Assembly (NCBI GenBank): GCA_934162125.1
Contig: CAKPHU010000005.1
Location: forward strand, 64,528-128,527
Length of the DNA stretch: 64,000 nucleotides
Direction: 5' to 3'
DNA from: an uncultured Bacilli bacterium
Lineage (GTDB): Bacteria > Bacillota_I > Bacilli_A > RF39 > UBA660
Both the position numbers and the translations under genes were made by a program. Below are positions 6,766 through 23,358 of this stretch, one piece after another. How positions within the stretch are numbered: position 1 is the first letter of the stretch; each line of letters starts with the position of its first letter. The notes beneath the pieces were generated by a model. The model was not told the DNA's origin and made no database searches. It saw only the letters and a list, made by a program, of their open reading frames with translations.

Positions 6766-7713
6766 TTAATCACTTTTCTTAGATTCTAGTTTTTCTAGTT
6801 GAATAGCTAAGTCACGGATTTTGCGATAGCGATGATTAAGTCCAGACTTAGTAATTGGCTTACCTGTTTCAACAGAGATTATTTCACTTAATTCTTTTAG
6901 TGAAGACTCTGGGTATTTTTTGCGAAACTCTAGAGCTATTTTAGTTCGATCATCCAGTAATTCAATACTACCAGTTTCTTCGATTAGGGCAATTTGCTCT
7001 AACTGTTGTTGGGCTGTTGCAAATATTTTATCCATGTTAGCTTGTTCGCAATTATTCAAACGATTAGTTTGATTCTTTTTTTCACGGTAAATACGAGCAT
7101 TTTCAAAATAAAGGACTGCTTGAGAAGCACCAAGAATACGAATATAATCACTTATCTTTTCTGCTTCTTTGATATATATCATGTAGCCTTTTTCACGATT
7201 TAAAATCTTGGCATTCAAATCAAAAATATTTAATAATTTTTGGACGAAGACAGCTTCATTTGGTTTAGAAATTAAAAGTTCCATATGGTAACGTGATGTT
7301 TTTGGATCGTTAATACTACCAGTGCATAGAAAGACACCTCTTAAGTAGGCACGTAGTTCTTCATTAGCTCCAACAATGTAAGTTGGTGGTGTTTCTATAT
7401 AGGTACCATTATTATCTAGATATGCAAGATCTTGTAATATCAAAGAAGTCTTTTGAGAAATACTTATTTGATAAAGATTCTTTTTACTAAAATTTAGATT
7501 GTCTTTTACTTCTACTTCGGCATCAATTTCATAGAGATTTTGAAAAAACTTTTTTAAACGTTCCACAGTAAATTCATTTTCAGTAGTTAGATGAAGAACG
7601 TTATTATGTAATACTCCATTGTTGCGAATAAAGCCAGATAGTTCGGCAATCATTTCAGATTTAGTAACATCTAGATTGGATATTTCTTCTTTTATTTTGA
7701 TTGTGTATGACAT
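6766..7713 (-). CDS. whiA: DNA-binding protein WhiA
   Basis: 315 aa. Degenerate LAGLIDADG-like N-domains plus a C-terminal HTH. Conserved synteny with yvcK upstream. Confidence 0.8.
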   Translation of the reverse strand: MSYTIKIKEEISNLDVTKSEMIAELSGFIRNNGVLHNNVLHLTTENEFTVERLKKFFQNLYEIDAEVEVKDNLNFSKKNLYQISISQKTSLILQDLAYLDNNGTYIETPPTYIVGANEELRAYLRGVFLCTGSINDPKTSRYHMELLISKPNEAVFVQKLLNIFDLNAKILNREKGYMIYIKEAEKISDYIRILGASQAVLYFENARIYREKKNQTNRLNNCEQANMDKIFATAQQQLEQIALIEETGSIELLDDRTKIALEFRKKYPESSLKELSEIISVETGKPITKSGLNHRYRKIRDLAIQLEKLESKKSD

Positions 7714-7716
7714 TTT

Positions 7717-8676
7717 CTACCTCATTAAGTATGAGAAAATTAGAGAACTTAACTTTAAACTATTATGTCTTAATATATTATCTTCCACAATAATTAAGTC
7801 GTCTTCTATTAATTCTACACCTACTTTTTCTAATTCTTGATAATCTATTTTAACAGGTTCTTTTTGCTCTGCTGTAGAATATTTTTCAGCTATCTTTTTA
7901 TCTATTTTTGTGTTACTGGCGATGACAGCATCAATTTTCTTTTTATGAAGATATTTATTTAATAATTTGATATGGTCACTTACTGTGAAACCATCTGTTT
8001 CGCCTGGTTGAGTTACTACATTGCAGGTATACATTAAAGGAGCTTTAGTTTCTTCTAGAGCAGCTTGAACTTCTTTACAAATAACGTTTGGAAGAACGCT
8101 AGTATAAAGACTACCCATACTAAATATTATTAAATCAGCTTCTTTGATAGCAGTTAGAACCTCTGGTAAAACTTTTGGTTCTTTTTTATAATATATTTTT
8201 TCAAATTGACGGTTGGCAGTAGTTATCTGCTCTTCTCCTTCAATGATGTTACCGTCTTTATCTTTACCCATTAGAGTTAGGCTTGGATCTTCAGAAATTG
8301 GTAGAACAGTATGTCTAACATCTAATAATTTACTTAAACTAGCAATAGACTCTTTTAAGGAACCAGTGATGTCTAACATAGCAGTTAGAATTAAGTTACC
8401 TAGGGCATGACCATCTAAGTCACTAGTTGTAGAAAAACGATAAGACATCATTTTTTTGATAGGTTCTTCAATTGATGATAATGATGTGATTACTTTTCTA
8501 ATATCGCCAACAGCAGGTGTATGGAACTCTTCTCTTAGACGACCAGTTGAACGACCATTATCAGAAACTGTTATAACCGCTGTTATATCAATAGGAAAAT
8601 CTTTTAAACCTTTTAATAAGTAGGAAATACCAGTTCCTCCTCCAAAAACGACTACTTTTTTATGCATATACTTCAC
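7717..8676 (-). CDS. yvcK: Gluconeogenesis factor YvcK (UPF0052/CofD-like family)
   Basis: VVVFGGGTGISYLLKGLK...ITAVITVSDNGRSTGRLR signature. Confidence 0.85.
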   Translation of the reverse strand: MKYMHKKVVVFGGGTGISYLLKGLKDFPIDITAVITVSDNGRSTGRLREEFHTPAVGDIRKVITSLSSIEEPIKKMMSYRFSTTSDLDGHALGNLILTAMLDITGSLKESIASLSKLLDVRHTVLPISEDPSLTLMGKDKDGNIIEGEEQITTANRQFEKIYYKKEPKVLPEVLTAIKEADLIIFSMGSLYTSVLPNVICKEVQAALEETKAPLMYTCNVVTQPGETDGFTVSDHIKLLNKYLHKKKIDAVIASNTKIDKKIAEKYSTAEQKEPVKIDYQELEKVGVELIEDDLIIVEDNILRHNSLKLSSLIFSYLMR

Positions 8677-9464
8677 CTCTGATTTGTTTTTTTCTTTTTA
8701 GTGCTTGTTTTAAGGCTATAAATATAGATAGTAAAACCAGCAATTATAAATAATAAGGAAACAAGTTGAGCTACTTTAAGACCACCTAACATTAAAGAAT
8801 CTGTACGTAGTCCTTCAACATATACTCTTTCTAGTCCATACCAAATTAGGTAAAAACCGGTTAATTGTGACCTCTTAATATTTTTTCTTTTCCTTAGTAA
8901 TAATAAAATTATAAAACCGATAAAACACCATAATGATTCATAGAAAAATGTTGGTTCACGGTAGAAACCATCAATATACATACCATTAATGATAAAATCT
9001 GGTAATTTTAAATTTTTTAAGGCAGTTATTGATGTTATGGGTCCATAGGCTTCTTGATTGAAAAAGTTACCCCAACGACCCATTGCTTGGCCAATGATAA
9101 GACCTGGAACAAAGATATCCAATATTTGGAAAAAATCTTTGTTATTTTTATGGCAATAGTAAATTATAAAAGCAAGACCAGCAAAAATACCACCGTGGAT
9201 GGCTAGGCCACCATTCCAAACCGCTAATATTTCTAGGGGATGCTTTGTGTAGTATGCTAAGTTAAAAATTACATAGTAAAGTCTCGCACCTAAAAGTCCA
9301 AAAAGAATGGTATAGAAAAGAAGATTAATTAAAAAATCTTCATCAATCTTTTGCCTTTTGGACTCTCTAAAAATTAGAATACTGGCAGTAAGCATACCTA
9401 GAAATATACAAATTGAATACCAGTATATATGAATGTTTCCAATTGAAAAAGCTACTCTACTCAT
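8673..9464 (-). CDS. lgt: Prolipoprotein diacylglyceryl transferase
   Basis: GRWGNFFNQEAYG signature motif in a polytopic membrane protein. Confidence 0.9.
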   Translation of the reverse strand: MSRVAFSIGNIHIYWYSICIFLGMLTASILIFRESKRQKIDEDFLINLLFYTILFGLLGARLYYVIFNLAYYTKHPLEILAVWNGGLAIHGGIFAGLAFIIYYCHKNNKDFFQILDIFVPGLIIGQAMGRWGNFFNQEAYGPITSITALKNLKLPDFIINGMYIDGFYREPTFFYESLWCFIGFIILLLLRKRKNIKRSQLTGFYLIWYGLERVYVEGLRTDSLMLGGLKVAQLVSLLFIIAGFTIYIYSLKTSTKKKKTNQR

Positions 9465-9888
9465 GATGTTTTACCTTCTTTATAATACTACCTATTAGGC
9501 CTTCAACAATAAGATTCATGATGGAAATTAGGATAGCCACAAAGAAAGCAATATAAATGTTTTCTAGTTGAAAATGTGATCCAAAAATCCAATCAGCCAA
9601 CTTTAGAATAAATAAGTTAATAAAAGGATAAAATAGTCCTAAGGTAATACCAGTTATAGGAATGGTTATAGTAAATAAGATTGGTTTTAGAGTTTTATTT
9701 AGAACGTAGAGAACAAGTTCTATTAAAATTGCATAGATTAAGAAATGATCTTTATCAATATAGACAGATTTGAACATACTACTAACTAAGATTAAGACTA
9801 AAGTATAGCCAATCATATAAATTAACCATTCTATAACTTTGTTTATTCTAGTGACATTTTTTTCTTTTATAATTAATTTCATAGTCAA
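9457..9888 (-). CDS. Small 4-TM membrane protein, phage-holin-4_2 / YvlD-like family
   Basis: 143 aa hydrophobic protein upstream of lgt and downstream of uvrA, as in the Bacillus yvl region. Family assignment is from memory. Confidence 0.4.
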   Translation of the reverse strand: MTMKLIIKEKNVTRINKVIEWLIYMIGYTLVLILVSSMFKSVYIDKDHFLIYAILIELVLYVLNKTLKPILFTITIPITGITLGLFYPFINLFILKLADWIFGSHFQLENIYIAFFVAILISIMNLIVEGLIGSIIKKVKHHE

Positions 9889-9893
9889 CGCTC

Positions 9894-12737
9894 CTATAGC
9901 ATTTTTTGTAAGAAAGCTCCTGTGTATGAATTTTTATTTTTAGCTACTTCTTCTGGTGTTCCGGTTGCGACTATTTGACCACCATCGTCTCCACCATTTG
10001 GTCCAAGATCTATAATATAGTCAGCAACTTTGATAACATCAAGGTTATGTTCTATGACAATAACTGTATCATTATTATCTACTATTTTCTCTAAAATTGC
10101 AAGTAAGTGGCGGATGTCTTCAGAATGTAGACCAGTAGTTGGTTCATCTAGGACGAATAAAGTCTTGCCTGTGGCCTTCTTTTGAAGTTCTTTAGCTAGC
10201 TTAACACGTTCTGCTTCACCACCTGATAAAGTTGGAGCACTTTGACCAAGTTTGATGTAGCCTAAACCAACGTCTTCTAAAACTTGAAGTTTACTTTTAA
10301 TTTTAGGAATGTTATCAAAGAACTCGAGAGCTTCACTTACACGCATGTCTAAAACTTCAGCAATATTTTTGCCCTTATATTTTATGTTTAAAGTTTCAGT
10401 ATTATACCTTGTGCCATGACACACTTCACATGGAACATATACATCAGGTAGGAAATGCATTTCAATCTTTTTAACACCATCACCACGGCAAGCTTCACAA
10501 CGGCCACCTTTGACATTGAATGAAAAACGATTCTTTTCAAAGCCATATATCTTAGCATCTTTGGTTGTAGTGAAAAGAGTTCTAATATCATCAAAGACAC
10601 CAGTGTAAGTCGCAGGATTAGAACGAGGTGTTCTACCGATTGGATTTTGAGATATTGCGACTATCTTATCTAGATTATCAATTCCCATAATTTTATCAAA
10701 TTTACCTGGTTTTTCTTTAGACTTGTAAATTTTATTATAAATTTCTTTACAAAGTATTTCATTAATTAAAGTACTCTTTCCACTACCAGAAACACCTGTT
10801 ACACAAGTGAAGGTTCCTAATGGGATATCAACATCAATATTTTTTAAATTATGTTCTTTAGCGCCACGGATTTTCAAATATTTTCCAGCACCTTTTCTTC
10901 TCTTTTTTGGAACTTCAATTCTTTTTTTACCACTTAAGTATTGTCCAGTTAAACTATTTTCATTTTTCATTACTTCTTCTGGTGTTCCAGCAGCAACTAC
11001 TCTACCACCCTTATCGCCAGCACCGGGACCAATATCTACTAAGTAATCAGCTGCTAACATCGTGTCAGTATCATGTTCTACAACGATTAAGGTGTTACCC
11101 AAATCACGCATTTCTAAAAGAGACTTTATTAATTTTTCATTATCTCTTTGATGAAGGCCAATACTTGGTTCATCTAAAACGTATAAGACGCCTGTTAAAT
11201 GAGAACCTATTTGAGTAGCAAGACGAATACGTTGAGCTTCCCCACCTGATAAAGTTCCGGCACTTCTACTTAGGGTTAAGTACTCTAGACCAACATTTGA
11301 TAAGAAGTTTAGACGATCAAGGACTTCTTTAAGAACTAATTTAGCTATTTCTTTCTTTTCTTCTGATAACTTTAAATTAGTAAAGAAAGGAATTAAATTC
11401 TTAATACTCATTTCAGTTACTTCATATATGTTTTTGCCACCTAGTTTTACGGCTAAGACACTATCGTTAAGTCTTGCACCATGGCAAGTTTCACAAGTAT
11501 GTTCAACCATGTAGTGCTCTAACCATTCTCTAATCCAAGTAGAATTAGTTTCTAAGTAACGTCTTTCTAGATTGTTGACAATACCTTCATAATAGTCTTT
11601 AGAATTGTATAGATTACCACTTTTAGACTTGTATTGGAAATGAATTAATTCATCAGAACCATATAAAATATAATTTTTTTGTTCTTTAGTTAGACTTTTC
11701 CAAGACTTAGTCATACTTATTTTGTAGTGTTTGCATAAACATTCTAGTTTTTTATAGTCGAGACCTTCTGGGTCATCAGTTAAAGTTTTAATGCAGCCAT
11801 CAGCAATAGATAATTTTTCATCTGGTATAAGAAGGTCTTCATCTATTTGAAGTTTTACACCTAATCCTTTACAATCAGGACATGCTCCATATGGGGCATT
11901 AAAACTAAATATTCTTGGTTCAAGTTCAGGTAGAGAAAATTCACAGTATGGACATGCAAAGTCTTCAGAAAAGACTAATTCCTTTTTATCTTCTCCTAAT
12001 ATTTCAATTACAACTTTACCATGAGATAATTTAGTAGCAGCTTCTAAAGCTTCAAAAAGACGGCTTCTAGAATCTGATTTTAAAACAATTCTGTCGATTA
12101 CAACATCTATTTTGTCTTTTTTATTTTTTTCTAAAGCTATTTCTTCACTTAGGTCAAGAACTTCGCCATTAACACGAACTCTAGTATAACCTTCTTTTCT
12201 AAGGTCATCTAATAGTTCTTTATGAGTTCCCTTTAAGCCATGAACAACTGGTGACATAATAATCATCTTTGTTCCTTCTGGATACTCCATAATTTTATTA
12301 GTCATTTCTTCTACACTTTGTGAAGTGATAGGAATATGATGAGTTGGACAGTATGGAACACCTACTCTAGCAAAAATAAGACGTAAGTAATCGTATATTT
12401 CCGTAACTGTTCCAACAGTAGAACGAGGATTATTATTAGTTGTCTTCTGATCGATACTAATAGCTGGAGATAGTCCTTCAATGCTATCAACATCTGGCTT
12501 TTCAGAATTGCCTAAAAATTGTCTAGCATAAGCAGATAAACTTTCAACATAACGTCTTTGACCTTCAGCATATATCGTATCAAAAGCAAGACTACTCTTG
12601 CCACTACCAGATAAGCCAGTCATAACTATTAATTTATTTTTGGGTAAAGTTATATCTATATTCTTTAAATTGTTTTCTCTTGCACCTTTTACAATTATTT
12701 CATCCATAGTAATCACCTGTTCCATATTATACCACAA
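9894..12737 (-). CDS. uvrA: Excinuclease ABC subunit A
   Basis: 947 aa. Two ABC ATPase modules (GLSGSGKSSLAFDT, GVSGSGKSTL) and zinc-finger Cys clusters. Confidence 0.97.
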   Translation of the reverse strand: MWYNMEQVITMDEIIVKGARENNLKNIDITLPKNKLIVMTGLSGSGKSSLAFDTIYAEGQRRYVESLSAYARQFLGNSEKPDVDSIEGLSPAISIDQKTTNNNPRSTVGTVTEIYDYLRLIFARVGVPYCPTHHIPITSQSVEEMTNKIMEYPEGTKMIIMSPVVHGLKGTHKELLDDLRKEGYTRVRVNGEVLDLSEEIALEKNKKDKIDVVIDRIVLKSDSRSRLFEALEAATKLSHGKVVIEILGEDKKELVFSEDFACPYCEFSLPELEPRIFSFNAPYGACPDCKGLGVKLQIDEDLLIPDEKLSIADGCIKTLTDDPEGLDYKKLECLCKHYKISMTKSWKSLTKEQKNYILYGSDELIHFQYKSKSGNLYNSKDYYEGIVNNLERRYLETNSTWIREWLEHYMVEHTCETCHGARLNDSVLAVKLGGKNIYEVTEMSIKNLIPFFTNLKLSEEKKEIAKLVLKEVLDRLNFLSNVGLEYLTLSRSAGTLSGGEAQRIRLATQIGSHLTGVLYVLDEPSIGLHQRDNEKLIKSLLEMRDLGNTLIVVEHDTDTMLAADYLVDIGPGAGDKGGRVVAAGTPEEVMKNENSLTGQYLSGKKRIEVPKKRRKGAGKYLKIRGAKEHNLKNIDVDIPLGTFTCVTGVSGSGKSTLINEILCKEIYNKIYKSKEKPGKFDKIMGIDNLDKIVAISQNPIGRTPRSNPATYTGVFDDIRTLFTTTKDAKIYGFEKNRFSFNVKGGRCEACRGDGVKKIEMHFLPDVYVPCEVCHGTRYNTETLNIKYKGKNIAEVLDMRVSEALEFFDNIPKIKSKLQVLEDVGLGYIKLGQSAPTLSGGEAERVKLAKELQKKATGKTLFVLDEPTTGLHSEDIRHLLAILEKIVDNNDTVIVIEHNLDVIKVADYIIDLGPNGGDDGGQIVATGTPEEVAKNKNSYTGAFLQKML

Positions 12738-12811
12738 ATATTAAAGAATATTACGTTTGACTGGCAGTTTTTTTAGATATTTATGTTATATTATTATTAG
12801 GATGTGATTAG

Positions 12812-14254
12812 ATGGATAATATCGTTTTAACAACTTTTATTTTAGGTAATAATAGAATACTTATTAATTGTGACTCAGATGAAGTTGAAGTACGTTATTT
12901 GAGTAGTGTTTCTGATATATATAATGCAAAAGGTAGATATATTTCATTTATTGATAGTAGTGATGGTGTTAGTAACGATTACTTTTCTGTTATTGTAGAT
13001 AAAATAAAACAAGGTGAATTTGACTCTTGTTTTATAAATTATAAGATTAATTATCAATTTAAAAGAGAGTTGAAAGTAAGACATGAAGAGAACGAATTAA
13101 AAAAGAATTGTCCAGTTAATGATTCTTATGTTTGGAATTATGTTTTTAATAAGAGGTTGCTTTTAGAACTTGTAGAAATTGGAGACTTTGAAATAGATAA
13201 TAGTTTATTTTTAGATAAATTTAAAAATAGACAAGTAATAAGCAGAGTATTATATTTCCATCATAGAGAAGGAAGCTATATTAAAATAGCTGGTATGGTT
13301 AATAGACGAGAAGAAGTTTACTATAAGAATATTGTCTATGTAGGAACTTTTTGTAATGGTACTTTTAATGGATATATTACATGGTTGATACAAATTGGGA
13401 AGGCTTTTGATTTTGATATTACTATTTTGTACGATAAGATTACAGAAATTACAAAGAAGAGATTTTCTAAGTACTTTAAGTGTGTTGAATATAATGACAA
13501 AATCAACTATGTTTGTGATAACTTGATAAGTACTTATTCTACTTATTTTTATCCTATGAATATTTATAGTTTAAAAGAGAATAGTCTTTTCATTCATGGA
13601 AATATGGCTGATTATGAAAGAGCTATTAGATTTAAGGATGATATATATGATAGGTACATTGCGGTATCAAAGATTTCACAAGAAAAAGCAAAAGGATATT
13701 TTCCAACAGATAATATAGAGTATATTTATAATCCTTATACTTTTGACAAGAGTGAAATTAAACCTCATTTAAAACTGATTTCAGCTTTTAGAAATGCCCC
13801 AGAAAAAGGAATGGATAGAGTTAAAAAGATGGCTGCTATCTTGGATGAAGAAAAAATTCCTTATACATGGTTAGTATTTACAGATACAGGACATGGTGTA
13901 TTTGGAGGACTTCTAGTTAGAAGTTCCGTAACAAATATTGGAGATTATTTAATGGATGCGGACTATTTAGTACAATTTAGTAGAAGTGAAGCTTTGTCTT
14001 ACTCTTTTACGGAAGCATTAATGGCAGGAGTAAAAATAATGTGTACTGATATTCCGGCAGCTAGAGAAATTGGGGTTGTGAATGGAAATAATGGTTTCTT
14101 AGTTCCTTGGGAAGCTTTTGATGATAATAATAAGGAACAGTTAAGAAAAATAGTTTTAGAAGCTTATAAGAATAAAGATATGAAATTTGAATATAATTAT
14201 GATTATAGTAAATTCCGTGATTATGAAAATGTATTTAGTAAAAATGACTTTTAA
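12812..14254 (+). CDS. Glycosyltransferase-like protein. The C-terminal half is GT4/GT-B Glycos_transf_1-like. The N-terminal region has a GT-A-like DxD segment (YISFIDSSDG).
   Basis: 480 aa. C-terminal motif SRSEALSYSFTEALMAGVKIM matches the E-x7-E region of GT4 enzymes. Divergent from uvrA and convergent with the radical SAM gene. Confidence 0.45.
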   Translation: MDNIVLTTFILGNNRILINCDSDEVEVRYLSSVSDIYNAKGRYISFIDSSDGVSNDYFSVIVDKIKQGEFDSCFINYKINYQFKRELKVRHEENELKKNCPVNDSYVWNYVFNKRLLLELVEIGDFEIDNSLFLDKFKNRQVISRVLYFHHREGSYIKIAGMVNRREEVYYKNIVYVGTFCNGTFNGYITWLIQIGKAFDFDITILYDKITEITKKRFSKYFKCVEYNDKINYVCDNLISTYSTYFYPMNIYSLKENSLFIHGNMADYERAIRFKDDIYDRYIAVSKISQEKAKGYFPTDNIEYIYNPYTFDKSEIKPHLKLISAFRNAPEKGMDRVKKMAAILDEEKIPYTWLVFTDTGHGVFGGLLVRSSVTNIGDYLMDADYLVQFSRSEALSYSFTEALMAGVKIMCTDIPAAREIGVVNGNNGFLVPWEAFDDNNKEQLRKIVLEAYKNKDMKFEYNYDYSKFRDYENVFSKNDF

Positions 14255-14263
14255 TATTTTACA

Positions 14264-15103
14264 TTAAAAGTCATTTTTGTTTTTATAAGTACATGATGCG
14301 CATAAAGGTTCTGATGGTTTATGGTTTTGAAATGATTTTTTTAGTTTTTGGTATCGTTCTGTTGCCATAATATTTTCTAGAGTATCAGTATAGATGTTAC
14401 CTAGATTAATAATACCTGAAGCATCTAGACAACAAGGTACTACCGTACCATCAACTAGAATAGCTAGATGAGTTTTTAGGGCATGACAATAACCATTTGA
14501 TTTTTCTTCTGTTACCGTAGGCCAGATAAACTCATTATCTTTATCCACATAAATATTGGAAGAAATTTTAACGTTTTGTTCTTTATAAAGTTTATCCACA
14601 ATTTGTGGGGATAAATTGTAGTAGTCTTTTAACTTTTCCACTATTTCTGTGGATTTTTTATCTAAAGTAGAATTACTTAAAGTCCATAGTCTATAAATTA
14701 CAGTAATGTCTTTAGGTAATTTATCAACACTTTGAAAAATGTTTTCAAAATAATTTGGATAGTTATTTTCAGAGTGAAGAGAAAAATTTACTTTTTTTAG
14801 AGCTTTAGAATTTTTTAAGTCATCTATTCTTTGAGAAAAAAGGGTTCCATTAGTAGTTAGATTTACTTTTAAGTCATTTTCTTCTGCTATTTTTAGAAAC
14901 TCTTTCAAGTCTTTATGAAGGAGTGGCTCTCCTTTGACATGAAGATAGATGTAGTCAGTATGAGATTTTATTTTAGAGATGATATTTTTAAATTCTTCAA
15001 TTGTCATAGTTCTTTTTGGTTTAGATGTTTTACTACAAAAACGGCAAGAAAGATTACAGCAATTCGTTATTTCAATATAGATTTTTTTAAAGGTCTTTTT
15101 CAT
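14264..15103 (-). CDS. Radical SAM protein with a C-terminal SPASM/twitch-type Cys cluster
   Basis: N-terminal CNLSCRFC (CxxxCxxC) and a C-terminal Cys-rich segment [14 protein letters not shown]...CASC. Its start overlaps the uvrB stop by 17 nt, so it is probably co-transcribed with uvrB. Confidence 0.75.
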
Positions 15104-17054
15104 TGGTTCCTAACTTCATTTCAAATAAGATGTCACGCAATTCCATAGCTCTTTCAAAATCTAAGTTCTTAGCTGCTTCACGCATTTCTCTTTCGACATT
15201 ATCAATCATTAGAGCAAGTTCTTTCTTAGTTGGTTTCTTAGTCTTTTCTTTCTTAGTATCATCAACGTTAGTAATAACATCACGAATTTCTTTAATTATT
15301 GTTTTAGGTACAATACCATGTTCTTTATTGTATTCCTCTTGAATATGACGACGACGAGCTGTTTCAGTGATAGCTTCATTCATAGAATCAGTTATTTTAT
15401 CACCGTACATTATAACATGTCCGTTAGCATTTCTAGCACAACGTCCGATAGTTTGAATTAAACTTCTAGTACTTCTTAAGAATCCTTCTTTATCAGCATC
15501 TAGAATCGCAATTAAAGATACTTCAGGTATATCAAGACCTTCTCTTAATAAGTTAATTCCAACAAGAACATCATATTTGCCACTACGTAAGTCATGAATT
15601 ATTTGAAGTCTTTGAAGTGTTTTAACTTCAGCATGTAGGTAAGCAACTTTAATATCTAATTCTTTTAAGTAGTTAGTCAATTCTTCAGCCATACGAATAG
15701 TTAACGTTGTGACTAAAACTTTTTCTTTTTTAGCAATGCGATCATTTATCTCAGATACTAAGTCATCTATTTGTCCTTCAGTTTTACGAACTTCAATAGT
15801 TGGGTCCAGAAGACCAGTTGGTCTAATTATTTGTTCAACAAACTCGCCATGTGTATCGGCCAACTCTTTATCACCAGGTGTTGCGGAAACATAAATTACT
15901 TGATTTATCTTCTGTTCAAACTCTTCATATTTTAAAGGTCTATTATCAAGCGCACTAGGCAATCTGAAACCATAATCAACAAGATTCTGTTTACGGGCTC
16001 TATCACCATTAAACATGCCTTTTACTTGAGGAAGAGTAACATGAGATTCATCTACTACTAATAAGTAATCTTTTGGGAAAAAGTCCATTAAAGTAGTTGG
16101 TGTTTCTCCTCTTTTACGACCAGCCATAGGAGCAGAATAGTTTTCAACCCCAGAGCAAAAGCCAGTCTCTTCAAGCATTTCAATATCATAGTTAGTTCTT
16201 TGCTCTAGACGTTCAGCTGCTAGAAGTTTATTTTCTGATTTTAGTTCAGCTAGACGTTCTTCTAGTTCTACTTTGATACGTTCAATTCCTTGATGAAGTT
16301 TTTCATCACTAACAACGAAGTGACTAGCGGGAAAGATACTAACATTTTTCATACTACTTATAATGTGACCAGTTAAGGTATCTATTTCACTAATACGATC
16401 TATTTCATCGTCAAAGAATTCAATACGATATCCCGTTGTCTTTTGATTGGCAGGAATTATTTCTAAGACGTCTCCACGAACACGAAAAGTACCACGTTTA
16501 AAGTCAAGGTCATTACGTTCATATAACATATCTACTAGTTTTTCTAAGACTTTATTTCTTTCTATTTTTTCTCCAGTAGATAGAGTTAACATTTTACTTT
16601 TGTATTCCTCTACTTCACCAATACCATATATGCAGGAAACGGAAGCAACAACAATAACATCTTTTCTAGATAAAAGTGCAGAAGTTGCGGCATGACGTAA
16701 TTCATCTATTTCATCATTAATTGATGAGTCTTTTTCAATATAAGTATCAGTAGATGGAACATAAGCTTCTGGTTGATAGTAATCGTAATATGAAACAAAG
16801 TACTCTACTTTATTTTCAGGAAATAGCTCTTTAAGCTCAGAATAAAGTTGACCAGCAAGAGTCTTATTATGAGCAAGCACTAAAGTAGTTTTATTAGTTT
16901 GGGCTATAACATTGGCAATAGTAAAAGTCTTACCTGTTCCAGTTGCACCTAGTAGGACTTGTTCTTTTTTACCTGCATTTAGGCCATCTACAAGTTCTTT
17001 GATAGCTTCTGGTTGATCTCCTGATGGTGAATATTTTGAAACTAGTTTAAACAT
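15087..17054 (-). CDS. uvrB: Excinuclease ABC subunit B
   Basis: 655 aa. Walker A GATGTGKT, helicase motifs and a UvrB C-terminal UVR domain. Confidence 0.97.
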
Positions 17055-17146
17055 AAGGCACCTCCTAAACTTAGTATTTTTTATTTTAGTATTAATATAC
17101 TAATAAATAATAATTCTTATATATTATAACATAGTAAAAGAACTTA

Positions 17147-18070
17147 TTATGAAATATTAAAAAGTTCTTGTATAGCTTTTTTATAAATGTCTTTGGCAAT
17201 ATTATAACCATCTTTATTTTCTTTAATTAAATTATCTGTCATAATACCACTGTTTACTTCTAAAACATAGTATTTGTTTTCCGTAGTTTTAATTATATCA
17301 ATACTTACAAAGCCAGTGGTTACTTTTAAAAAGTTTTGAATAGTTGAGACTATATCTTCTTTTATTTTAGGCGAAATATCAAAACTCATTTTGGCACCAC
17401 GTGATAAGTTGAATTTCCAATCGTAAGTATATTTTTCATCTTTTGCTAGAACTTTATCTTTATTTTCATCATCGTAATCAGCAAAATATTCTTGATTAAA
17501 CTCTATTAATAAATCTTTAATAGTACTTTTTCCATCACCAATAATTTCTGGTTTTATTTTTTTATACATTAGAACTACTTCGCCATTTAGGACAATTAGT
17601 CGATATTCATTTAAAGCTTCATAGTAAGGACAAACGCTTAAAGCATGATGTTTTTTAGATAGTTCATGATACTTAGAATTAAGTTCCTTGAAGTTCTTGT
17701 AGTGATAGACATCTCGACCACAGGCACCATTATTTATTTTTAGAACGACATCTTTTTGATATTTTTCAAAGAGTTTTTTTAGATATGTTGTGCCTTTAAA
17801 TTTTTTGGCATATTCTTCTTTAAAACTGTCGCTATAAATTAGTTCATGTTCAACTGCTGGTATGTTTAAATAATTTAGATATTCATAAGTTGCATATTTA
17901 TCGTCATAGATGATACCTAAAGAATGAGTATTATTGTCAAATTTATAGCCAGAAATAGTCTTTACTTGACTTTTATACGATAAGATCATTATCCAGTTTT
18001 TGGAAATATAAGTGTAGTCAATTGATAATTCATCGCAGATTTCTTCGATTATTTTGTTAAATGTGGGCAT
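17147..18070 (-). CDS. Putative ATP-grasp fold protein
   Basis: 307 aa. The central KINNGACGRDV and IIGDGKSTIKDLL segments resemble ATP-grasp ligases (RimK/Ddl-like). Tentative. Confidence 0.35.
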   Translation of the reverse strand: MPTFNKIIEEICDELSIDYTYISKNWIMILSYKSQVKTISGYKFDNNTHSLGIIYDDKYATYEYLNYLNIPAVEHELIYSDSFKEEYAKKFKGTTYLKKLFEKYQKDVVLKINNGACGRDVYHYKNFKELNSKYHELSKKHHALSVCPYYEALNEYRLIVLNGEVVLMYKKIKPEIIGDGKSTIKDLLIEFNQEYFADYDDENKDKVLAKDEKYTYDWKFNLSRGAKMSFDISPKIKEDIVSTIQNFLKVTTGFVSIDIIKTTENKYYVLEVNSGIMTDNLIKENKDGYNIAKDIYKKAIQELFNIS

Positions 18071-18139
18071 ACTTTCACCTGCTTTCTAAGTATATATTAT
18101 ACAATAAAATACGTAAAAAAAAGAACTATAAAGTTCTCC

Positions 18140-18436
18140 TTAGTTATTGAATGTTTGAGCAACGTCTTTATCAGTATCGATATTTCTATTAGTAACTTCA
18201 GCAATATGATTTACCATTGCGATTACTTTATCATAGAATACTTGATAATTCTTTCTTAGCTCTTCATAACGTCCATTTGAAACGTCTGCTCCAGAACTTT
18301 GCCAATTTTCTCCAAATAATTCTGTCATGCTTCTATCAACGTTATTAAATATTTCTAACATATCGTTAGCATCTGATTGAATAGTTGTTGCTAAAGAATA
18401 TGCTTGTTCATAATCTTTCTCTTCAAATTCGTTCAT
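18140..18436 (-). CDS. WXG100/ESAT-6-like small helical protein (paralog of 44274-44570)
   Basis: 98 aa, helix-turn-helix sized, with ENWQSSGA near the centre. Alignable to the 44274 ORF. Confidence 0.55.
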   Translation of the reverse strand: MNEFEEKDYEQAYSLATTIQSDANDMLEIFNNVDRSMTELFGENWQSSGADVSNGRYEELRKNYQVFYDKVIAMVNHIAEVTNRNIDTDKDVAQTFNN

Positions 18437-18446
18437 ACTTTACCTC

Positions 18447-18749
18447 CTAATCAAATAAATTTTGAGCACGAACTGTTGATTCTTGTTCATTTTCATCAAA
18501 TCTTTGTGCACCACTCATTATTTTTTCACCAAATTCGTTTAATAATTCTTTAAACTCATTTAAGTTTTGAACTTGATTATCTACTTGAGTACTGAATTCA
18601 GTAGCAGCTGGTCCTCTCCAAATTTCCATTAAACTTTCTTTATGAGATTTTAAATCAGTTATTTTGCCATTAAATTCTTCTGCATCTCTTACTGTTGAAT
18701 TTCCATTGTCATACATATCATTAGTATTAACTTTTAAACCGTTTTGCAT
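18447..18749 (-). CDS. WXG100 family protein (EsxA-like; paralog of 44570-44878)
   Basis: 100 aa with the canonical central motif EIWRGPAATEF (W-x-G...A..F). Confidence 0.7.
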   Translation of the reverse strand: MQNGLKVNTNDMYDNGNSTVRDAEEFNGKITDLKSHKESLMEIWRGPAATEFSTQVDNQVQNLNEFKELLNEFGEKIMSGAQRFDENEQESTVRAQNLFD

Positions 18750-18825
18750 AATTAACCTCCTATCATTAATTACATTTTAGCATAGTATTTTTTTTAATTA
18801 AAGTTTTTTAACGTTTGTTTACATA

Positions 18826-19746
18826 TTATTCGCCAACAAAATAAGTTTTCCATAAGTATTGAGCATCTTTAACTGTTGGAGCGTTATTAATTAAGTCTTT
18901 TACTAGTAGAGCTTGTGAATTTGTATAGCCAGATCCTTCAGTCATTTCAGCAATGGCAAAGTCCATTTGAACATCTACATTACTTGGATCAAGACCTTTT
19001 TCCTCTGCAAATTTAAATAGATTTGCTTTTCTTTCATCGTTCCATTTAAAGATTCCGTATCCATTACCATTTTCAGCAATTGTGGAAGTAACATTAGTAC
19101 CATCTTTAGCTTCATTGATAATACCTTTGATAGCTTGATCTGTGAAACCATTTTCTCCGAACTTATTAGTAATATTAGATTCAACTGTACTATCAATTGT
19201 AGTGTCTGTTCCAATTGGAGTTGTAACTTCTCCTGGATCGTCAGCATCATCTTCTGGTTCTGGTGTTGTATCTGGTTCAGAATAATCAGAGCCTCCAGCG
19301 TCTCCTCCAGAGTAACTTCCTCCAGATGATCCACCATAGCTACCACCTGAAGAACCACTATAACCACCGCTTGAGCTATCATAATAACCATCTGATGTAG
19401 CAGTACTATCAGCATTTACACCATCTGTTGCTTCTGTCTCTAGAGCAGTTTCTGCTTCGCTGATATAATCTTCGAATTTAAATACCATTGAACTTTGTAA
19501 GTCTTCTTGGGTATTCATTACATCAGTTATAAAACTAGATGCAGCTTTTACTTTTTGACCAGCCATAGAAATGTTATTTGCTATAGCTTGAGCAGCACCT
19601 CTGAAATTAAATTCAGCACTATCGATTGCATTAGCAGCTACAGAAGTAGCTAGTTCATCAAATTGACTAGAAAGGCTTTCTAATCCAGTTACTGCCTCTG
19701 TTAATTTTTGTGAATCCGTTTTAAAAATATTTCCCAACAATGACAT
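18826..19746 (-). CDS. Modular effector-like protein: WXG/LXG-type helical N-domain, Gly/Ser-rich linker, and a C-terminal phage-tail-lysozyme-like (Phage_lysozyme2-type) cell-wall hydrolase domain
   Basis: 306 aa. Helical N-terminus, then (GGYSGSSGGSYGGSSGG) low complexity, then a C-terminus GIFKWNDERKANLFKFAEEKG...MDFAIAEMTEGSGY resembling the GLFQWN-type lysozyme domain. Confidence 0.55.
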   Translation of the reverse strand: MSLLGNIFKTDSQKLTEAVTGLESLSSQFDELATSVAANAIDSAEFNFRGAAQAIANNISMAGQKVKAASSFITDVMNTQEDLQSSMVFKFEDYISEAETALETEATDGVNADSTATSDGYYDSSSGGYSGSSGGSYGGSSGGSYSGGDAGGSDYSEPDTTPEPEDDADDPGEVTTPIGTDTTIDSTVESNITNKFGENGFTDQAIKGIINEAKDGTNVTSTIAENGNGYGIFKWNDERKANLFKFAEEKGLDPSNVDVQMDFAIAEMTEGSGYTNSQALLVKDLINNAPTVKDAQYLWKTYFVGE

Positions 19747-19768
19747 AATACTTTCCCCTTTCTATCTT

Positions 19769-20071
19769 TTAAACACCATCTATATTTGTTCCAACTTCAT
19801 TATCCGTTTTAGCATATTCGGTAGCCGTATCTTTTAAATAATTTGAGAAGTTAGTTAAATCAGCAACATCTTCTAGAATTCCACCAATATCTTCTTGCCA
19901 TGCTTCTACTAGGCTATCAGCTGCTTTTCCTGATAATAGATTATTGTTATAAATATTACTTAACTCTGTATTTGCATTTTGAAGCATAGTATTTAATTTT
20001 TCTTTACTAGATTCAATTGTACTTGCTCCCTTATCAAAAAGAGAATAATCTTTTGCTTCGAAATCAGTCAT
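19769..20071 (-). CDS. LXG/WXG-like small helical protein. Homologous to the N-terminal domain of the 46199-47008 protein.
   Basis: 100 aa. NLLSGKAADSLVEAWQ aligns with VFMGPVAEECVNLI of 46199-47008, an (L/F)xG motif. Confidence 0.5.
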   Translation of the reverse strand: MTDFEAKDYSLFDKGASTIESSKEKLNTMLQNANTELSNIYNNNLLSGKAADSLVEAWQEDIGGILEDVADLTNFSNYLKDTATEYAKTDNEVGTNIDGV

Positions 20072-20081
20072 CTTATCACCT

Positions 20082-20369
20082 CTATATTCTTTTGGCAGCT
20101 AATGCTTTATCTGCTTCCTCGATTTTATCTGCTAGTTTGTTTAAATAAATAGACATAGCTTCGATTTTCAAAATTTTATCTTTTAATTGTGCATCTTTTT
20201 CAGTGTAAGAATTACTAAATGCTTCTTTGGCGATTCCATTCCAATCTGATGTATCGGCTGTTAATTCTGTTTTTCCTGCGTCTAAGTCAGCTTTAGCTTG
20301 GCGTGCTAGAGTATCTAATTGTTTTGCAGCTTGTCTTACTTCGTCAAAATGACATTCTATAACTGACAT
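20082..20369 (-). CDS. WXG100 family protein (paralog of 44966-45253)
   Basis: 95 aa. SDWNGIAKEAF canonical WxG motif. Good SD (GTGAGGG) upstream. First gene of cassette A. Confidence 0.7.
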   Translation of the reverse strand: MSVIECHFDEVRQAAKQLDTLARQAKADLDAGKTELTADTSDWNGIAKEAFSNSYTEKDAQLKDKILKIEAMSIYLNKLADKIEEADKALAAKRI

Positions 20370-20483
20370 AATGTGCCCTCACTTTCTACTATCTTATAAT
20401 TTATTATAACATATTTTTTTATTTTTAATTATTTTTTAAATATAAAGGGCAATAATTTACAGTTTAATTGATTTTTTTTAAAA

Positions 20484-20514
20484 TAAAAAAAGGCTCTTTA
20501 AAAGCCTTTTTTGT
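20484..20514 (-). terminator. Rho-independent terminator (bidirectional hairpin AAAGGCT-ctttaaa-AGCCTTT with flanking A and T runs)
   Basis: Perfect 7-bp stem at 20489-20510 overlapping the stop of the 20498-21478 gene. The U-run is on the minus strand. It separates that gene from cassette A. Confidence 0.5.
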
Positions 20515-21478
20515 GTTTAATTAACATTTTTGGGTTCTTTAAGGGCTTTTCTTGAAAGCCTAAAACTTCTTCTGATTCATGTTTTATTTGGGAATCTTTA
20601 CCAGAAATAAAGTCTAAGTAATCAACACCTGTATATGGTGTGGTAAAGGAGAAATCAGAAGTTTCTTCATAGTAGAGACCATTGCGATAAGAAAGGGCAA
20701 AACCATCAAAATAATTTTTCATATTTTGTTCAGTTAAAGGCATATAACCCTTTTTTAGAATTGTGCTGGCAACATTTAAGCGGTCTTCTGTCATGGTCAT
20801 AAAACATCCTGGTAGACAGCCAGAAATTCCCATGACTCCTAATCTGTTTAAAGAATTTGTTTTTTCCACAAAAAACTGTCGATAAGTACAATCTACTAAG
20901 TATTTTGAACCTTTAATTTTGACAATATTGAAGAAATGGAAGCCATCTCCACCTAAAAGATTAGCTTTTTCATCAAAGCCAGGGTGGATAACTACTTTTT
21001 TGCATGGAATAGAATGCTGTTTACAAATTTTTTCCACATAATTTGCGGAAACATAACAATAATTAGTAAAAGATAAATCTTCAATTCCTTTACGATTAAA
21101 GATTGGATGATAACTACGAGTAGCTAAGTATCCTCTTGTCTCATGAACGAGCCATGATAATATTTCTTCGGCAGAAGCTGATGATGATGGAGCTGATTTT
21201 TCTTTATCTTTTTGATATTCTGGGAGAGATTCAATTATAAATCCTTCAGGAAGAGCCATTTCGCAATCAGTAAGACGTTCTCTAAGAAGAACATAAGCTA
21301 TATTTATCTTACCATCCATGTAATAGTCAGGTCCTACATCTTTTATAAATTGATAAGCCTTATCTAATTCTTTTTTTGCTTCATCTAAGCTAGGTGCAGT
21401 TTTAATGTTTTTAGCATAAGTTGACATTTTATCTAGATAAGACATTTCTTCTTGATATGTTTTTTGAAATATATACAT
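20498..21478 (-). CDS. Transglutaminase-like superfamily protein (papain-like Cys-His-Asp fold)
   Basis: 326 aa. NYCYVSANYVEKICKQHSIPCKKV matches the transglutaminase-core consensus (G-x-C-x-x-[FY]-[AS]...R..GIPAR). A downstream His (GFHFFNIV) and Asp (LVDCTY) sit at appropriate spacing. Confidence 0.55.
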   Translation of the reverse strand: MYIFQKTYQEEMSYLDKMSTYAKNIKTAPSLDEAKKELDKAYQFIKDVGPDYYMDGKINIAYVLLRERLTDCEMALPEGFIIESLPEYQKDKEKSAPSSSASAEEILSWLVHETRGYLATRSYHPIFNRKGIEDLSFTNYCYVSANYVEKICKQHSIPCKKVVIHPGFDEKANLLGGDGFHFFNIVKIKGSKYLVDCTYRQFFVEKTNSLNRLGVMGISGCLPGCFMTMTEDRLNVASTILKKGYMPLTEQNMKNYFDGFALSYRNGLYYEETSDFSFTTPYTGVDYLDFISGKDSQIKHESEEVLGFQEKPLKNPKMLIKHKKGF

Positions 21479-21572
21479 AATAAATCTCCCTTGGACTTGT
21501 ATTATAACATAAATCTTTATTTATTACTTAATTTTATGTAAAAGAAAAAAAAGAATACTAAAAGATAGTATT

Positions 21573-23306
21573 CTATGAATTTGAGTTTTCATTCAAATAT
21601 AAGTTTTGGTAAACTTTGGATTTTTTTAAGAGTTCGGCATGAGTACCATAATTTTCTAACTTTCCTTTGTCTATAATATTGATAATGTCAGCATCAACTA
21701 TTGTAGAAAGACGATGAGCAACAATTATTACAGTATGATCTTTTACTAAATTATCAATAGTCTTTTTAATATATTCTTGTGATTCATTGTCAAGGGCTGA
21801 TGTAGCTTCATCAAATAAAATGATTTTAGTATTTAACATCAGCGTTCTAGCAATCGCAAGACGTTGTTTTTGACCACCTGATAAGTTTACGCCACCTTCA
21901 CCAATAATAGTGTCATATTGTTTTGGTAAAGACATGATGTATTTATCGATGTAGGCTTTCTTACAATATTTTCTTACTTCTTTTAAAGTTACATTTGGTT
22001 TTACTAATTTAAAGTTATCAATTATAGATAAATTAAATAAGAATGGTGCTTGTCTAATAATAGAAATGTTTTTTCTTAGATCTTTTTCTGTTAAATCTTT
22101 GATATCTATATCATCAATTAAAATTTGACCTGTTGTAGAATCAAAATAACGTAATAATAAGTTAAAGATTGTTGATTTACCATTACCACTCTTACCTACA
22201 ATAGCAACTTTTTTATGAGGTTCAATTTTTAGAGAAAGGCCTTTTAAAGTGAAGTCTTCATCTTCTGAGTATTTAAACTTAACATCTTTAAATTCAATAT
22301 TTCCTTTTATTGACTTAACTTTCTTAGTACCAAATTTCTCATCTTCATATAATTCATTATTAATAATTTCACCAATTCTCTTTAAAGAAACAGTTACTTT
22401 ATTATAACTTACACCAAAATCAGAGATACTTTCTACAACTTCATCAATACGCCAGATATACATTTCTAGCATAATGAATGTGGCATAAGTTATTTCGCCT
22501 TGGATAAAGAAATATCCAGCAGTTAGCAAAATAATAAATTGTAGCGAAAAGTAAACTAAATTATTTAATCCGTAATACCAGACTTCATAATTTCTAATTT
22601 TTTTGTTTTTATTAAACAAATCTGTTAATTGTTTTAAAATATTTTCTTCTATATTATTTTTGATTCCTAGAGATTTTATCTCTCTGATACCTGTAATATT
22701 TTCAGTTGCAACTTTAACGTAGTTGTCAGATTCTTTTTTAATAGACTCTTGTGTCTTCTTTATTTTTGGGAAGAACTTAGTAGAAATAAAGCCCATGGCT
22801 ACTCCGAAGATAACTATTTCTAAGCCTAGAACCCATGAGATAGAAAATGCTAAAACAGTGATAGCAACTACTACTAGTGCTTTACACAATAATTTAATTA
22901 GTTTAGCAAGTAGTTCCATTACACGATCTGGATCTGTGTATAGACGATTGATGAATTCACCTACTCCGATATCTTCAAAAGCTTTAGCTGGTAGATTATC
23001 AATTTTATGATATAAATCCATACTAACATTTTTCATAAATTTTAATTCCAAACTGTTATATAGTTTATCTTTTGGTATTTGAAGGATTGCATATAAAATA
23101 ATGTATGTTCCTTCCCATGAAGCTAGATAAATAAAGAATTGTTTTAAATCTTTTAAAATTAAGAATTCTAGAGCTTTACCCCAGAAGTAAGCTGCGAATA
23201 AAACAGGTAAATAAGTTAGAACCACTAAGAACATATAAAGAAATAATTTTAGTTTGTCTTCTTTTATGTAGTGCCATAGAATTTTAAAACTATCCATTTT
23301 TTTCAT
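21573..23306 (-). CDS. ABC transporter, fused permease/ATP-binding (ABCB-type exporter)
   Basis: 6-TM N-domain plus Walker A GKSGNGKST, signature LSGGQKQR and Walker B ILFDEATSALD. Start placed at MKKMDSF (23306), which has an AAGAGGTGA SD. The ORF-track start is 23342. Confidence 0.85.
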   Translation of the reverse strand: MKKMDSFKILWHYIKEDKLKLFLYMFLVVLTYLPVLFAAYFWGKALEFLILKDLKQFFIYLASWEGTYIILYAILQIPKDKLYNSLELKFMKNVSMDLYHKIDNLPAKAFEDIGVGEFINRLYTDPDRVMELLAKLIKLLCKALVVVAITVLAFSISWVLGLEIVIFGVAMGFISTKFFPKIKKTQESIKKESDNYVKVATENITGIREIKSLGIKNNIEENILKQLTDLFNKNKKIRNYEVWYYGLNNLVYFSLQFIILLTAGYFFIQGEITYATFIMLEMYIWRIDEVVESISDFGVSYNKVTVSLKRIGEIINNELYEDEKFGTKKVKSIKGNIEFKDVKFKYSEDEDFTLKGLSLKIEPHKKVAIVGKSGNGKSTIFNLLLRYFDSTTGQILIDDIDIKDLTEKDLRKNISIIRQAPFLFNLSIIDNFKLVKPNVTLKEVRKYCKKAYIDKYIMSLPKQYDTIIGEGGVNLSGGQKQRLAIARTLMLNTKIILFDEATSALDNESQEYIKKTIDNLVKDHTVIIVAHRLSTIVDADIINIIDKGKLENYGTHAELLKKSKVYQNLYLNENSNS

Positions 23307-23332
23307 ATTATTCACCTCTTTTTTCAAAATAA

Positions 23333-23358
23333 AAGAGATCACATAATAGTGACCTCTT
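23333..23358 (-). promoter_or_regulatory. Hairpin (AAGAGATCAC-ataata-GTGACCTCTT) between the small upstream ORF and the ABC exporter start. Possible attenuator.
   Basis: 9/10-bp inverted repeat followed on the minus strand by U-rich UUAUUUUG, located between the leader ORF stop (23371) and the ABC gene SD. Confidence 0.3.

Follow-up and report, generated by a model that had tools for sequence, protein, structure and literature searches.

Auxiliary iron-sulfur clusters of radical S-adenosylmethionine (SAM) enzymes are held either by a SPASM domain, which binds two of them, or by a twitch domain, a truncated SPASM domain able to bind one (PMC9012708). In BtrN, the 2-deoxy-scyllo-inosamine dehydrogenase of the butirosin pathway (PDB 4M7T), the auxiliary cluster has been proposed as the electron acceptor (PMC9012708), and the spore photoproduct lyase (SP lyase, SplB) provides a precedent for DNA repair by a radical SAM enzyme (PMC3467042). 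In the literature, no description was found of a radical SAM gene linked to uvrB, nor of the protein family (or its accessions) considered here, and publications on RF39 or RFN20 combined with radical SAM gave nothing relevant. Such a gene, designated rSAM, is present between uvrB and uvrA in a 64,000-nt stretch of contig CAKPHU010000005.1 (positions 64,528 to 128,527, hereafter the window) from an uncultured Bacilli bacterium of the RF39 group, where it is accompanied by a convergent glycosyltransferase gene, GT480. The position of rSAM in an operon with uvrB is conserved among relatives, yet previously unremarked.

Conservation of the uvrB-rSAM arrangement

In the window, rSAM (14264-15103, minus strand; 279 aa) directly follows uvrB (15087-17054, minus strand), which encodes a 655-aa protein with the Pfam domains UvrB_inter, UvrB, Helicase_C, ResIII and UVR. 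The rSAM ATG at 15103 overlaps the uvrB stop codon (TAA, 15087-15089) by 17 nt (ATGAAAAAGACCTTTAA; 15087-15103, minus strand), and an AGGA lies upstream. As M1 is the sole start codon upstream of the CX3CX2C cysteine motif, the overlap is not an artefact of open reading frame (ORF) calling, and an identical 17-nt overlap is found in L100, a relative with 95.1% identity to the window over 18.1 kb. This geometry suggests translational coupling, and it supports the co-expression of uvrB and rSAM that had been proposed in a first-pass annotation made from the sequence alone. GT480 (12812-14254, plus strand) converges on rSAM with 9 nt between the stop codons.

The uvrA ORF as mechanically called covers 9894-12737 (minus strand) and reaches a TTG at 12737. 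The true start is most likely the ATG at 12707, giving a 937-aa protein (9894-12707; Pfam UvrA_inter, UvrA_DNA-bind and ABC_tran). An AGGTGA ribosome-binding site is located 5 nt upstream of this ATG, uvrA is called as 937 aa in L100, and a candidate promoter at 12726-12734, which lies inside the 5' end of the called ORF, would support the same start. With uvrA beginning at 12707, uvrB and uvrA are ~2.38 kb apart. Thus, the gene calls, the 17-nt overlap, the convergent 480-aa gene and the 2.3-kb gap between uvrB and uvrA reported in the first-pass annotation were all confirmed from the sequence.

The same annotation had interpreted this gap as the result of an insertion that split a uvrBA pair. 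One genome per species (GTDB representatives) was scanned, giving 323 relatives. The best 80 loci, each from a species-level genome within the uncultured Bacilli/Mycoplasmatota clade to which the window belongs, were taken for synteny and compared with the window proteins by tblastn. A uvrB gene was found no more than 2 kb upstream of the rSAM orthologue in 74 of these 80 loci, the window uvrB being 74-86% identical to those of the 74, and the six exceptions consist of five unlinked loci, with heterogeneous neighbours, and one that is truncated at the edge of its contig. Relative to the uvrB stop, rSAM starts at -8 to +40 nt in 45 of 70 loci, mostly between -4 and +3. By comparison, uvrA was located within 7 kb downstream of rSAM in 59 of the 80 loci, many of the others being truncated contigs. 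Nothing separates rSAM from uvrA in at least 13 loci, where the gaps are 21-150 nt, and a further five loci (L050, L065, L077, L079 and L085) retain uvrB-rSAM with no uvrA within 9 kb downstream. In L085 (9001-11062), rSAM is followed directly by yvlD-lgt.

Within the clade, rSAM is linked to uvrB more faithfully than uvrA is. Direct coupling of uvrB and rSAM is the basal and commonest state on a neighbour-joining tree of UvrB (47 of 76 loci), and the linkage is conserved down to ~49% rSAM identity. In three orthologues with 63-65% identity, the order is uvrB, a Cu-oxidase_4-like gene, rSAM, an unknown gene, uvrA, lgt, cofD and whiA. The presence of rSAM in 74 of 80 related loci and the ancestral state of the coupling on the UvrB tree identify the arrangement as conserved synteny rather than an insertion: rSAM is a long-standing resident of the uvrB unit in this AT-rich gut and rumen Bacilli clade. 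The GC content of rSAM and GT480 (0.27-0.28, versus 0.29 for the window) is uninformative on transfer.

A candidate extended -10 promoter for uvrB-rSAM, TGtTATAAT, was read from the sequence at 17123-17131 (minus strand), and TGnTAAAAT elements are found 25-40 nt upstream of uvrB in many relatives. rSAM would be transcribed from this promoter upstream of uvrB, its translation would be coupled to termination of uvrB via the 17-nt overlap, and the transcript would end at a 16-bp AT-rich hairpin (14240-14278) that spans the stop codons of both rSAM and GT480 and is likely a bidirectional terminator for uvrB-rSAM and GT480. The 76-nt stretch containing the hairpin (14225-14300) has a stability of -20 kcal/mol (z = -5.3, with 0 of 200 shuffles as stable), and U-tracts are present at the hairpin on both strands. 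Both rSAM and GT480 end in K-N-D-F because the hairpin arms encode the last four codons and the stops of the two genes. In the window genome, this terminator would leave uvrA as its own transcription unit, for which the candidate extended -10 promoter mentioned above (TGgTATAAT, 12726-12734, minus strand) may serve. GT480 would be an independent gene, sharing the hairpin with rSAM and having its own candidate extended -10 promoter, TGtTATATT, at 12784-12792 (plus strand).

A perfect palindrome (TTAGTAT-ATTA-ATACTAA, 17086-17103) located between the promoter and the uvrB ribosome-binding site is a possible operator. It is not conserved in relatives, and its one exact match in the window is statistically unremarkable. 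No Cheo/LexA box (GAAC-N4-GTTC) was found in the 64-kb window, and no Rfam family reached its gathering score anywhere in it. In a subclade of the relatives, conserved inverted copies of ATTCGTGTCC / GGACACGAAT lie 30-60 nt apart just upstream of uvrB, together with a conserved AAATTTGTGGCCGAC box (L041:3060-3130, L056:6940-7010, L063:3060-3150 and L066:6950-7020; also L072, L075 and L062). These ATTCGTGTCC / GGACACGAAT repeats are not present in the window. Compensatory change was seen in only one of nine pairs of the inverted repeat, and protein-binding sites seem likelier than RNA structure.

Architecture of rSAM and the meaning of its linkage to uvrB

The CNLSCRFC sequence near the N-terminus of rSAM provides the radical SAM motif, C16-X3-C20-X2-C23. 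Two Pfam domains were identified, Radical_SAM (PF04055, 63.7 bits; cut-off 29.5) and SPASM (59.4 bits, above cut-off), while no NCBIfam model reached its cut-off. The C-terminal domain includes exactly five cysteines (206, 224, 225, 268 and 271) in the arrangement C-X12-G-X4-CC...C-X2-C, with the glycine at position 219, and the protein ends 8 residues after C271. The SPASM motif of Grell et al. in 2015 reportedly comprises seven cysteines, CX9-15GX4C - gap - CX2CX5CX3C - gap - C. As only the first half of this motif is present, rSAM is assigned to the twitch type and not to SPASM, and the Pfam SPASM model still matches because it covers the part common to the two. The first-pass description of a radical SAM/SPASM protein is thus accurate for the Pfam domains and not for a full SPASM domain. 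The predicted product is a twitch enzyme that resembles BtrN and could accommodate one auxiliary cluster.

Across 143 family representatives, 34-52% identical to the window rSAM, all eight cysteines are conserved; those of the CX3CX2C motif are present in 136-138 of the 143, and the remainder are gaps in N-terminally truncated sequences. G58-E59-P60 ('KGEPLL', a GGE-type SAM-binding motif) is invariant or nearly so, and the family further conserves H55, S108, R138, W140, F192, W194, D227 and G235. A profile of 16 orthologues gave BtrN as the best PDB match (E 3e-14), in an alignment that covers the core as well as the C-terminal domain. BtrN is also the best Foldseek match (E 4e-10, TM 0.62/0.70) of the AlphaFold2 (AF2) model of rSAM (pLDDT 81.9), followed by BlsE, AbmM, SkfB, EpeE, PqqE and anSME. 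As judged by dN/dS between the window and L100 (0.10 for rSAM and 0.12 for GT480, with 0.016 for uvrB), both rSAM and GT480 are under purifying selection and functional.

Several more specific assignments were rejected. The NCBIfam models for the W-cofactor maturase, MoaA, spiro-SPASM, AhbD, NirJ, SkfB, PqqE and viperin all scored far below their cut-offs and matched the N-terminal core only. A prokaryotic viperin (pVip) was likewise discarded, as PADLOC matched only residues 8-114, which form the generic core and do not extend to a C-terminal NTP-binding part, and the NCBIfam viperin model reached 41.9 bits against a cut-off of 180. Nor is rSAM a maturase of RiPPs, peptides that are made by the ribosome and then modified post-translationally, as it has neither a RiPP recognition element (RRE) nor a precursor ORF. 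No RRE/PqqD domain was found in rSAM, in which Radical_SAM and SPASM are the sole Pfam matches and the cysteine motif begins at residue 16. A search for short Cys-rich precursor ORFs had been suggested for 12738-12811 and 14255-14263, and none were found there. The genes in 12700-15150 are separated by 9 nt and by 74-104 nt, with no small ORF in these spaces, and all ORFs of at least 20 aa lie inside the long genes in other frames, none of them Cys-rich. Nor do the relatives show a conserved small gene.

Given the further Foldseek matches, rSAM might instead modify a macromolecule other than DNA, either a protein side chain, as anSME and the EpeE epimerase do, or an rRNA or tRNA nucleotide, as a step of housekeeping maturation. 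SkfB, EpeE, anSME, PqqE and SuiB were all matched at probability 1.0, the family is kept as a single conserved gene both in reduced genomes and broadly in Clostridia, and the extra invariant C225 beside a cluster ligand could donate a hydrogen atom, as in epimerases. However, with 279 aa, rSAM is smaller than the peptide- and protein-modifying SPASM enzymes among the PDB matches (312-459 aa), is closest to BtrN, and lacks the second auxiliary cluster found in most SPASM enzymes that modify peptides or proteins. It also has no RRE, and neither a substrate gene beside it nor a neighbour that is conserved in any context. A role of this type is therefore considered unlikely.

Instead, rSAM is probably a housekeeping radical SAM oxidoreductase with one auxiliary cluster that acts on a small substrate and whose translation is coupled to that of uvrB. 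Following the mechanism proposed for BtrN, the CX3CX2C cluster would cleave SAM to generate a 5'-deoxyadenosyl radical that abstracts a hydrogen atom from the substrate, and an auxiliary [4Fe-4S] cluster, bound by C206, C224/C225, C268 and C271, would take up the second electron to complete a two-electron oxidation. The substrate would be a small soluble metabolite of the sugar, cyclitol or nucleoside type rather than a ribosomal peptide, since rSAM carries no recognition domain at its N-terminus and the enzymes closest to it in structure use cyclitols or nucleoside sugars as substrates.

The family extends well beyond the clade. At 50% identity, 563 clusters were recovered with E <= 1e-30, and the best 150 of these are mostly proteins of 250-330 aa that align nearly end to end. 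A profile of distant members located the family in cultured Clostridia, namely Clostridium botulinum (UniProt A7GCB4), C. sporogenes, A. cellulolyticus, Tissierella, Alkaliphilus and Herbinix, and the Clostridia members are named only 'radical SAM/SPASM domain-containing protein'. In four genomes (C. botulinum, A. cellulolyticus, Tissierella and Herbinix), rSAM is solitary and its neighbours are unrelated, the four sets being an ArsC-family and a GlpA-like gene; HycI and CotH; MsrA and NrdDG; and a pseudouridine synthase and a DEAD helicase. rSAM belongs to a sizeable, uncharacterised BtrN-like twitch family that carries generic annotation only.

The close linkage to uvrB would be explained differently if rSAM assisted nucleotide excision repair, either by reversing or pre-processing lesions in DNA, such as a crosslink or a lesion of the 5',8-cyclopurine or photoproduct type, or by modifying or activating UvrB, and for that reason were co-expressed with it stoichiometrically. 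The start/stop coupling in about 45 of 70 loci, kept to ~49% rSAM identity, is consistent with such a role, as are the persistence of the uvrB-rSAM pair without uvrA nearby, the position of rSAM after addB-addA-like genes in the outlier L071, and the existence of SP lyase. BlsE and AbmM, which come next after BtrN in structural similarity, use nucleoside sugars as substrates, and the twitch enzyme MoaA carries out a purine C8-ribose cyclisation. However, in Clostridia and in five of the 80 loci, family members that keep the invariant residues stand alone and far from uvrB, among neighbours unrelated to repair. rSAM has no similarity to SP lyase, which itself lacks an auxiliary cluster, and possesses neither an N-terminal nor a beta-hairpin DNA-binding module. 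No LexA/Cheo box lies upstream of uvrB or elsewhere in the window, and a difference in isoelectric point between the clades (8.35 versus 6.84), considered as a hint of DNA binding, can be explained by AT bias. Such an accessory role appears improbable. Operon hitch-hiking in compact genomes would account for the linkage, and it is favoured over a repair function for two reasons. In Clostridia, the family is found away from uvrB, and the overlapping or near-zero spacing leaves no neutral breakpoint, which is enough to explain why the pair is stable.

Some observations weigh against a metabolic oxidoreductase that merely travels with uvrB. A PgeF-like (Cu-oxidase_4) gene lies between uvrB and rSAM in 18 of the 76 loci on the UvrB tree, where it marks essentially one derived clade, and a scattered family of ~220 aa with no assigned role occupies the same slot in 6 of the 76. 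In the loci inspected, the slotted genes overlap the rSAM start, which hints at a partner-dependent function. The tight and old link to uvrB, surviving in at least five lineages that lack a nearby uvrA, could reflect selection for co-expression, and in the outlier L071 rSAM adjoins repair genes. Co-transcription and translational coupling are read from gene spacing only, the suggested reaction type and substrate class from remote similarity only (18% identity to BtrN), and the sample of 80 loci, the best among 323 relatives, covers the clade boundary in part. Taken furthest, these observations would make rSAM a second kind of radical DNA repair or lesion-processing enzyme, next to SP lyase, working in anaerobic gut Bacilli with UvrB and with the PgeF-like or ~220-aa proteins as partners, which is quite improbable.

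The slotted Cu-oxidase_4 gene (PF02578, YfiH/PgeF-like; ~240 aa) was found at L001:5292-6014, L008:5292-6017, L058:5845-6564 and in about 15 more loci, and is absent from the 64-kb window. The alignment of these proteins has no invariant His, and the usual metal site may be lost. The second family, of ~200-230 aa, is encoded directly upstream of rSAM at L030:8310-9011, L044:3923-4582, L048:7676-9011 (two tandem copies), L052:6529-7119, L063:5145-5771 and L089:4242-4919. Its members share the motif R-x-HFIMNG...LCD.LS.LLSD..PF.VSIY and have no Pfam match. The possibility that they are divergent Cu-oxidase_4 proteins was rejected (hhalign probability 3.5%).

GT480 and the variable islands

The product of GT480 matches Pfam Glycos_transf_1 (PF00534, 34 bits; cut-off 26.4) and PF13692. 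Its AF2 model (pLDDT 89.6) includes an alpha/beta domain at residues 1-160, and Foldseek matched it to BshA, GtfA, WbnH, TarM and SdgB at probability 1.0, with TM scores that are low owing to the extra domain and a hinge. An EX7E motif is typical of retaining GT4 enzymes, and E393-x7-E401 is invariant among 27 family members. GT480 is thus predicted to adopt a GT-B fold of the GT4 type (about residues 165-480) preceded by an extra N-terminal domain of degenerate GT-A type. The initial recognition of a GT4-like convergent gene was correct. The GT-A-like N-terminal segment with a DxD motif that had also been noted is supported in part, as a few homologues match PF00535 or PF10111, but GT480 itself has no PF00535/GT2 match and only D51 of the D48-S-S-D51 sequence is conserved at >=90% in the family.

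The GT480 family includes ~200 proteins and is clade-restricted. The convergent placement of the gene beside rSAM is restricted to the window, L100, L024, L026, L027, L032 and L036. GT480 is upstream of uvrB in L009, L012, L021, L088 and L089, and elsewhere lies between surface proteins with TED domains (L091) or beside a GTPase and an ATP-binding cassette (ABC) exporter (L093). The insertion suggested in the first-pass annotation therefore holds for GT480, which lies in a variable island between rSAM and uvrA. GT480 probably acts on the cell envelope or on surface proteins, a cell-surface acceptor being favoured because of the TED-domain adhesin and flippase contexts of its relatives.

The only phage relatives of GT480 are glycosyltransferases of Butyrivibrio phages (28% identity, E 1e-17). 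These are encoded in a DNA-metabolism module, with a single-stranded DNA-binding protein (SSB) gene adjoining and a 'CMP glycosidase' gene close by, which is a lead and not evidence. In Butyrivibrio phage Arawn (L102, MN882550.2:25082-27506), the GT-B relative shares its module with the 'CMP glycosidase' gene, a pair of SSB genes and a VRR-NUC nuclease gene, and the module could be one for DNA modification.

The locus has the backbone ftsEX-pcsB // uvrB-rSAM // uvrA-yvlD-lgt-cofD-whiA, in which // denotes a variable island. Downstream of uvrA, the window includes, as judged by Pfam, a yvlD-like Phage_holin_4_2 gene (9457-9888), lgt (8673-9464), cofD/yvcK (7717-8676) and whiA (6766-7713), all on the minus strand, and the yvlD-lgt-cofD-whiA order of this conserved segment (6766-9888) is repeated in related loci. 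The stretch between rSAM and uvrA varies from 21 nt to 5.9 kb across loci. It includes 65 ORFs that fall into 36 BLAST clusters, with DUF7666, zinc-ribbon and HAD proteins, many unknowns, and GT480 in 4. The 329-372-aa proteins encoded downstream of rSAM in L001, L005 and L008 were considered as relatives of GT480 and proved unrelated.

In 42 related loci, the pcsB-uvrB spacer measures between 97 and 6728 nt. In the window, this island (17147-23342, minus strand) is bordered by pcsB (23583-24758) and includes an ATP-grasp gene (17147-18070), two WXG100 pairs around a gene for a 306-aa protein with a lysozyme-like C-terminus (18140-20369), a gene for an unknown 326-aa protein (20498-21478) and an ABC exporter gene (21573-23342), all on the minus strand; the assignments are from Pfam. 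In the 306-aa protein, a Gly/Ser-rich linker is accompanied by a Phage_lysozyme2 domain at the C-terminus, and the WXG100 and lysozyme-domain genes suggest a type VII secretion cassette for a cell-wall-degrading effector. Homologues of the ATP-grasp gene are found in only three other loci, and that of L100 (L100:6035-6957) is split by a frameshift, indicating either a pseudogene or an assembly error. PADLOC gave no defence match for GT480, the ATP-grasp protein or the 326-aa protein.

It had been proposed that rSAM, GT480, the ATP-grasp gene, the WXG100 genes and the ABC exporter form one modification or biosynthetic unit, that is, an inserted RiPP- or glycopeptide-like cassette that split uvrBA. 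In the window, the named genes are indeed clustered within 10 kb, and in one unrelated contig, L093, a span of 6 kb carries homologues of GT480, of the ATP-grasp protein (43%) and of the 326-aa protein (32%), so that a looser link between GT480 and ATP-grasp, without rSAM, is possible. However, these neighbours sit in the two variable islands, which vary in content between genomes, and rSAM occurs without any of the other genes in most relatives. GT480 is in the gap between rSAM and uvrA in only about six loci and is elsewhere or missing in the rest, the ATP-grasp gene was found in no more than three other loci and carries a frameshift in L100 despite its 95% identity to the window, and the WXG100 genes flank a lysozyme-domain protein, which would place them in an effector cassette of their own. 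The lack of a precursor ORF and of an RRE also argues against such a cassette. Synteny thus largely refutes it, and a unit of this composition is very improbable. In L093 (8001-16943), a Polysacc_synt/MurJ-type flippase gene, a second ATP-grasp gene and an ABC exporter gene adjoin the GT480 homologue (53%), and the co-occurrence of GT480, ATP-grasp and 326-aa protein genes may represent a loose envelope-modification gene set that is independent of rSAM.

Comparison with known systems

If rSAM is simply hitch-hiking with uvrB, the apparent insertion is a clade-wide operon architecture with two flanking hot spots for accessory genes. If the linkage is functional, it would represent radical chemistry that aids nucleotide excision repair in strict anaerobes, which would be new. 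With 563 clusters at 50% identity, including members in C. botulinum and C. sporogenes, the rSAM family is a tractable target for the discovery of function.

Like the retaining GT4 enzymes BshA, TarM, GtfA, SdgB and WbnH, GT480 combines PF00534, a predicted GT-B fold and an EX7E motif, but it differs from them in having an extra N-terminal domain of ~160 residues and in belonging to a narrow, clade-restricted family. For rSAM, the link to a DNA repair gene invites comparison with SplB, also a radical SAM enzyme encoded in Firmicutes. However, SplB has a single cluster, an N-terminal domain and a beta-hairpin, an architecture that differs from that of rSAM, and SP lyase was absent both from the PDB profile matches of rSAM (E <= 1e-3) and from the top 50 Foldseek matches. 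The SPASM maturases AlbA, SkfB, PqqE, anSME and SuiB share with rSAM a Pfam SPASM match and the fold of the radical SAM core and of the start of the C-terminal domain. In contrast to these enzymes, rSAM lacks the CX2CX5CX3C...C half of the motif, and so would hold at most one auxiliary cluster, and it has no RRE/PqqD domain and no accompanying precursor or substrate gene.

BtrN is the described enzyme closest to rSAM, both by profile and by predicted fold. Both proteins have 250-280 aa, a CX3CX2C motif at the extreme N-terminus and a truncated SPASM domain in which one Cys is followed, after about 18 residues, by a PC motif and then by a terminal CX2C. The two differ in that their identity is only ~18%, that no butirosin or aminoglycoside genes are located near rSAM, and that rSAM has an additional invariant cysteine, C225.

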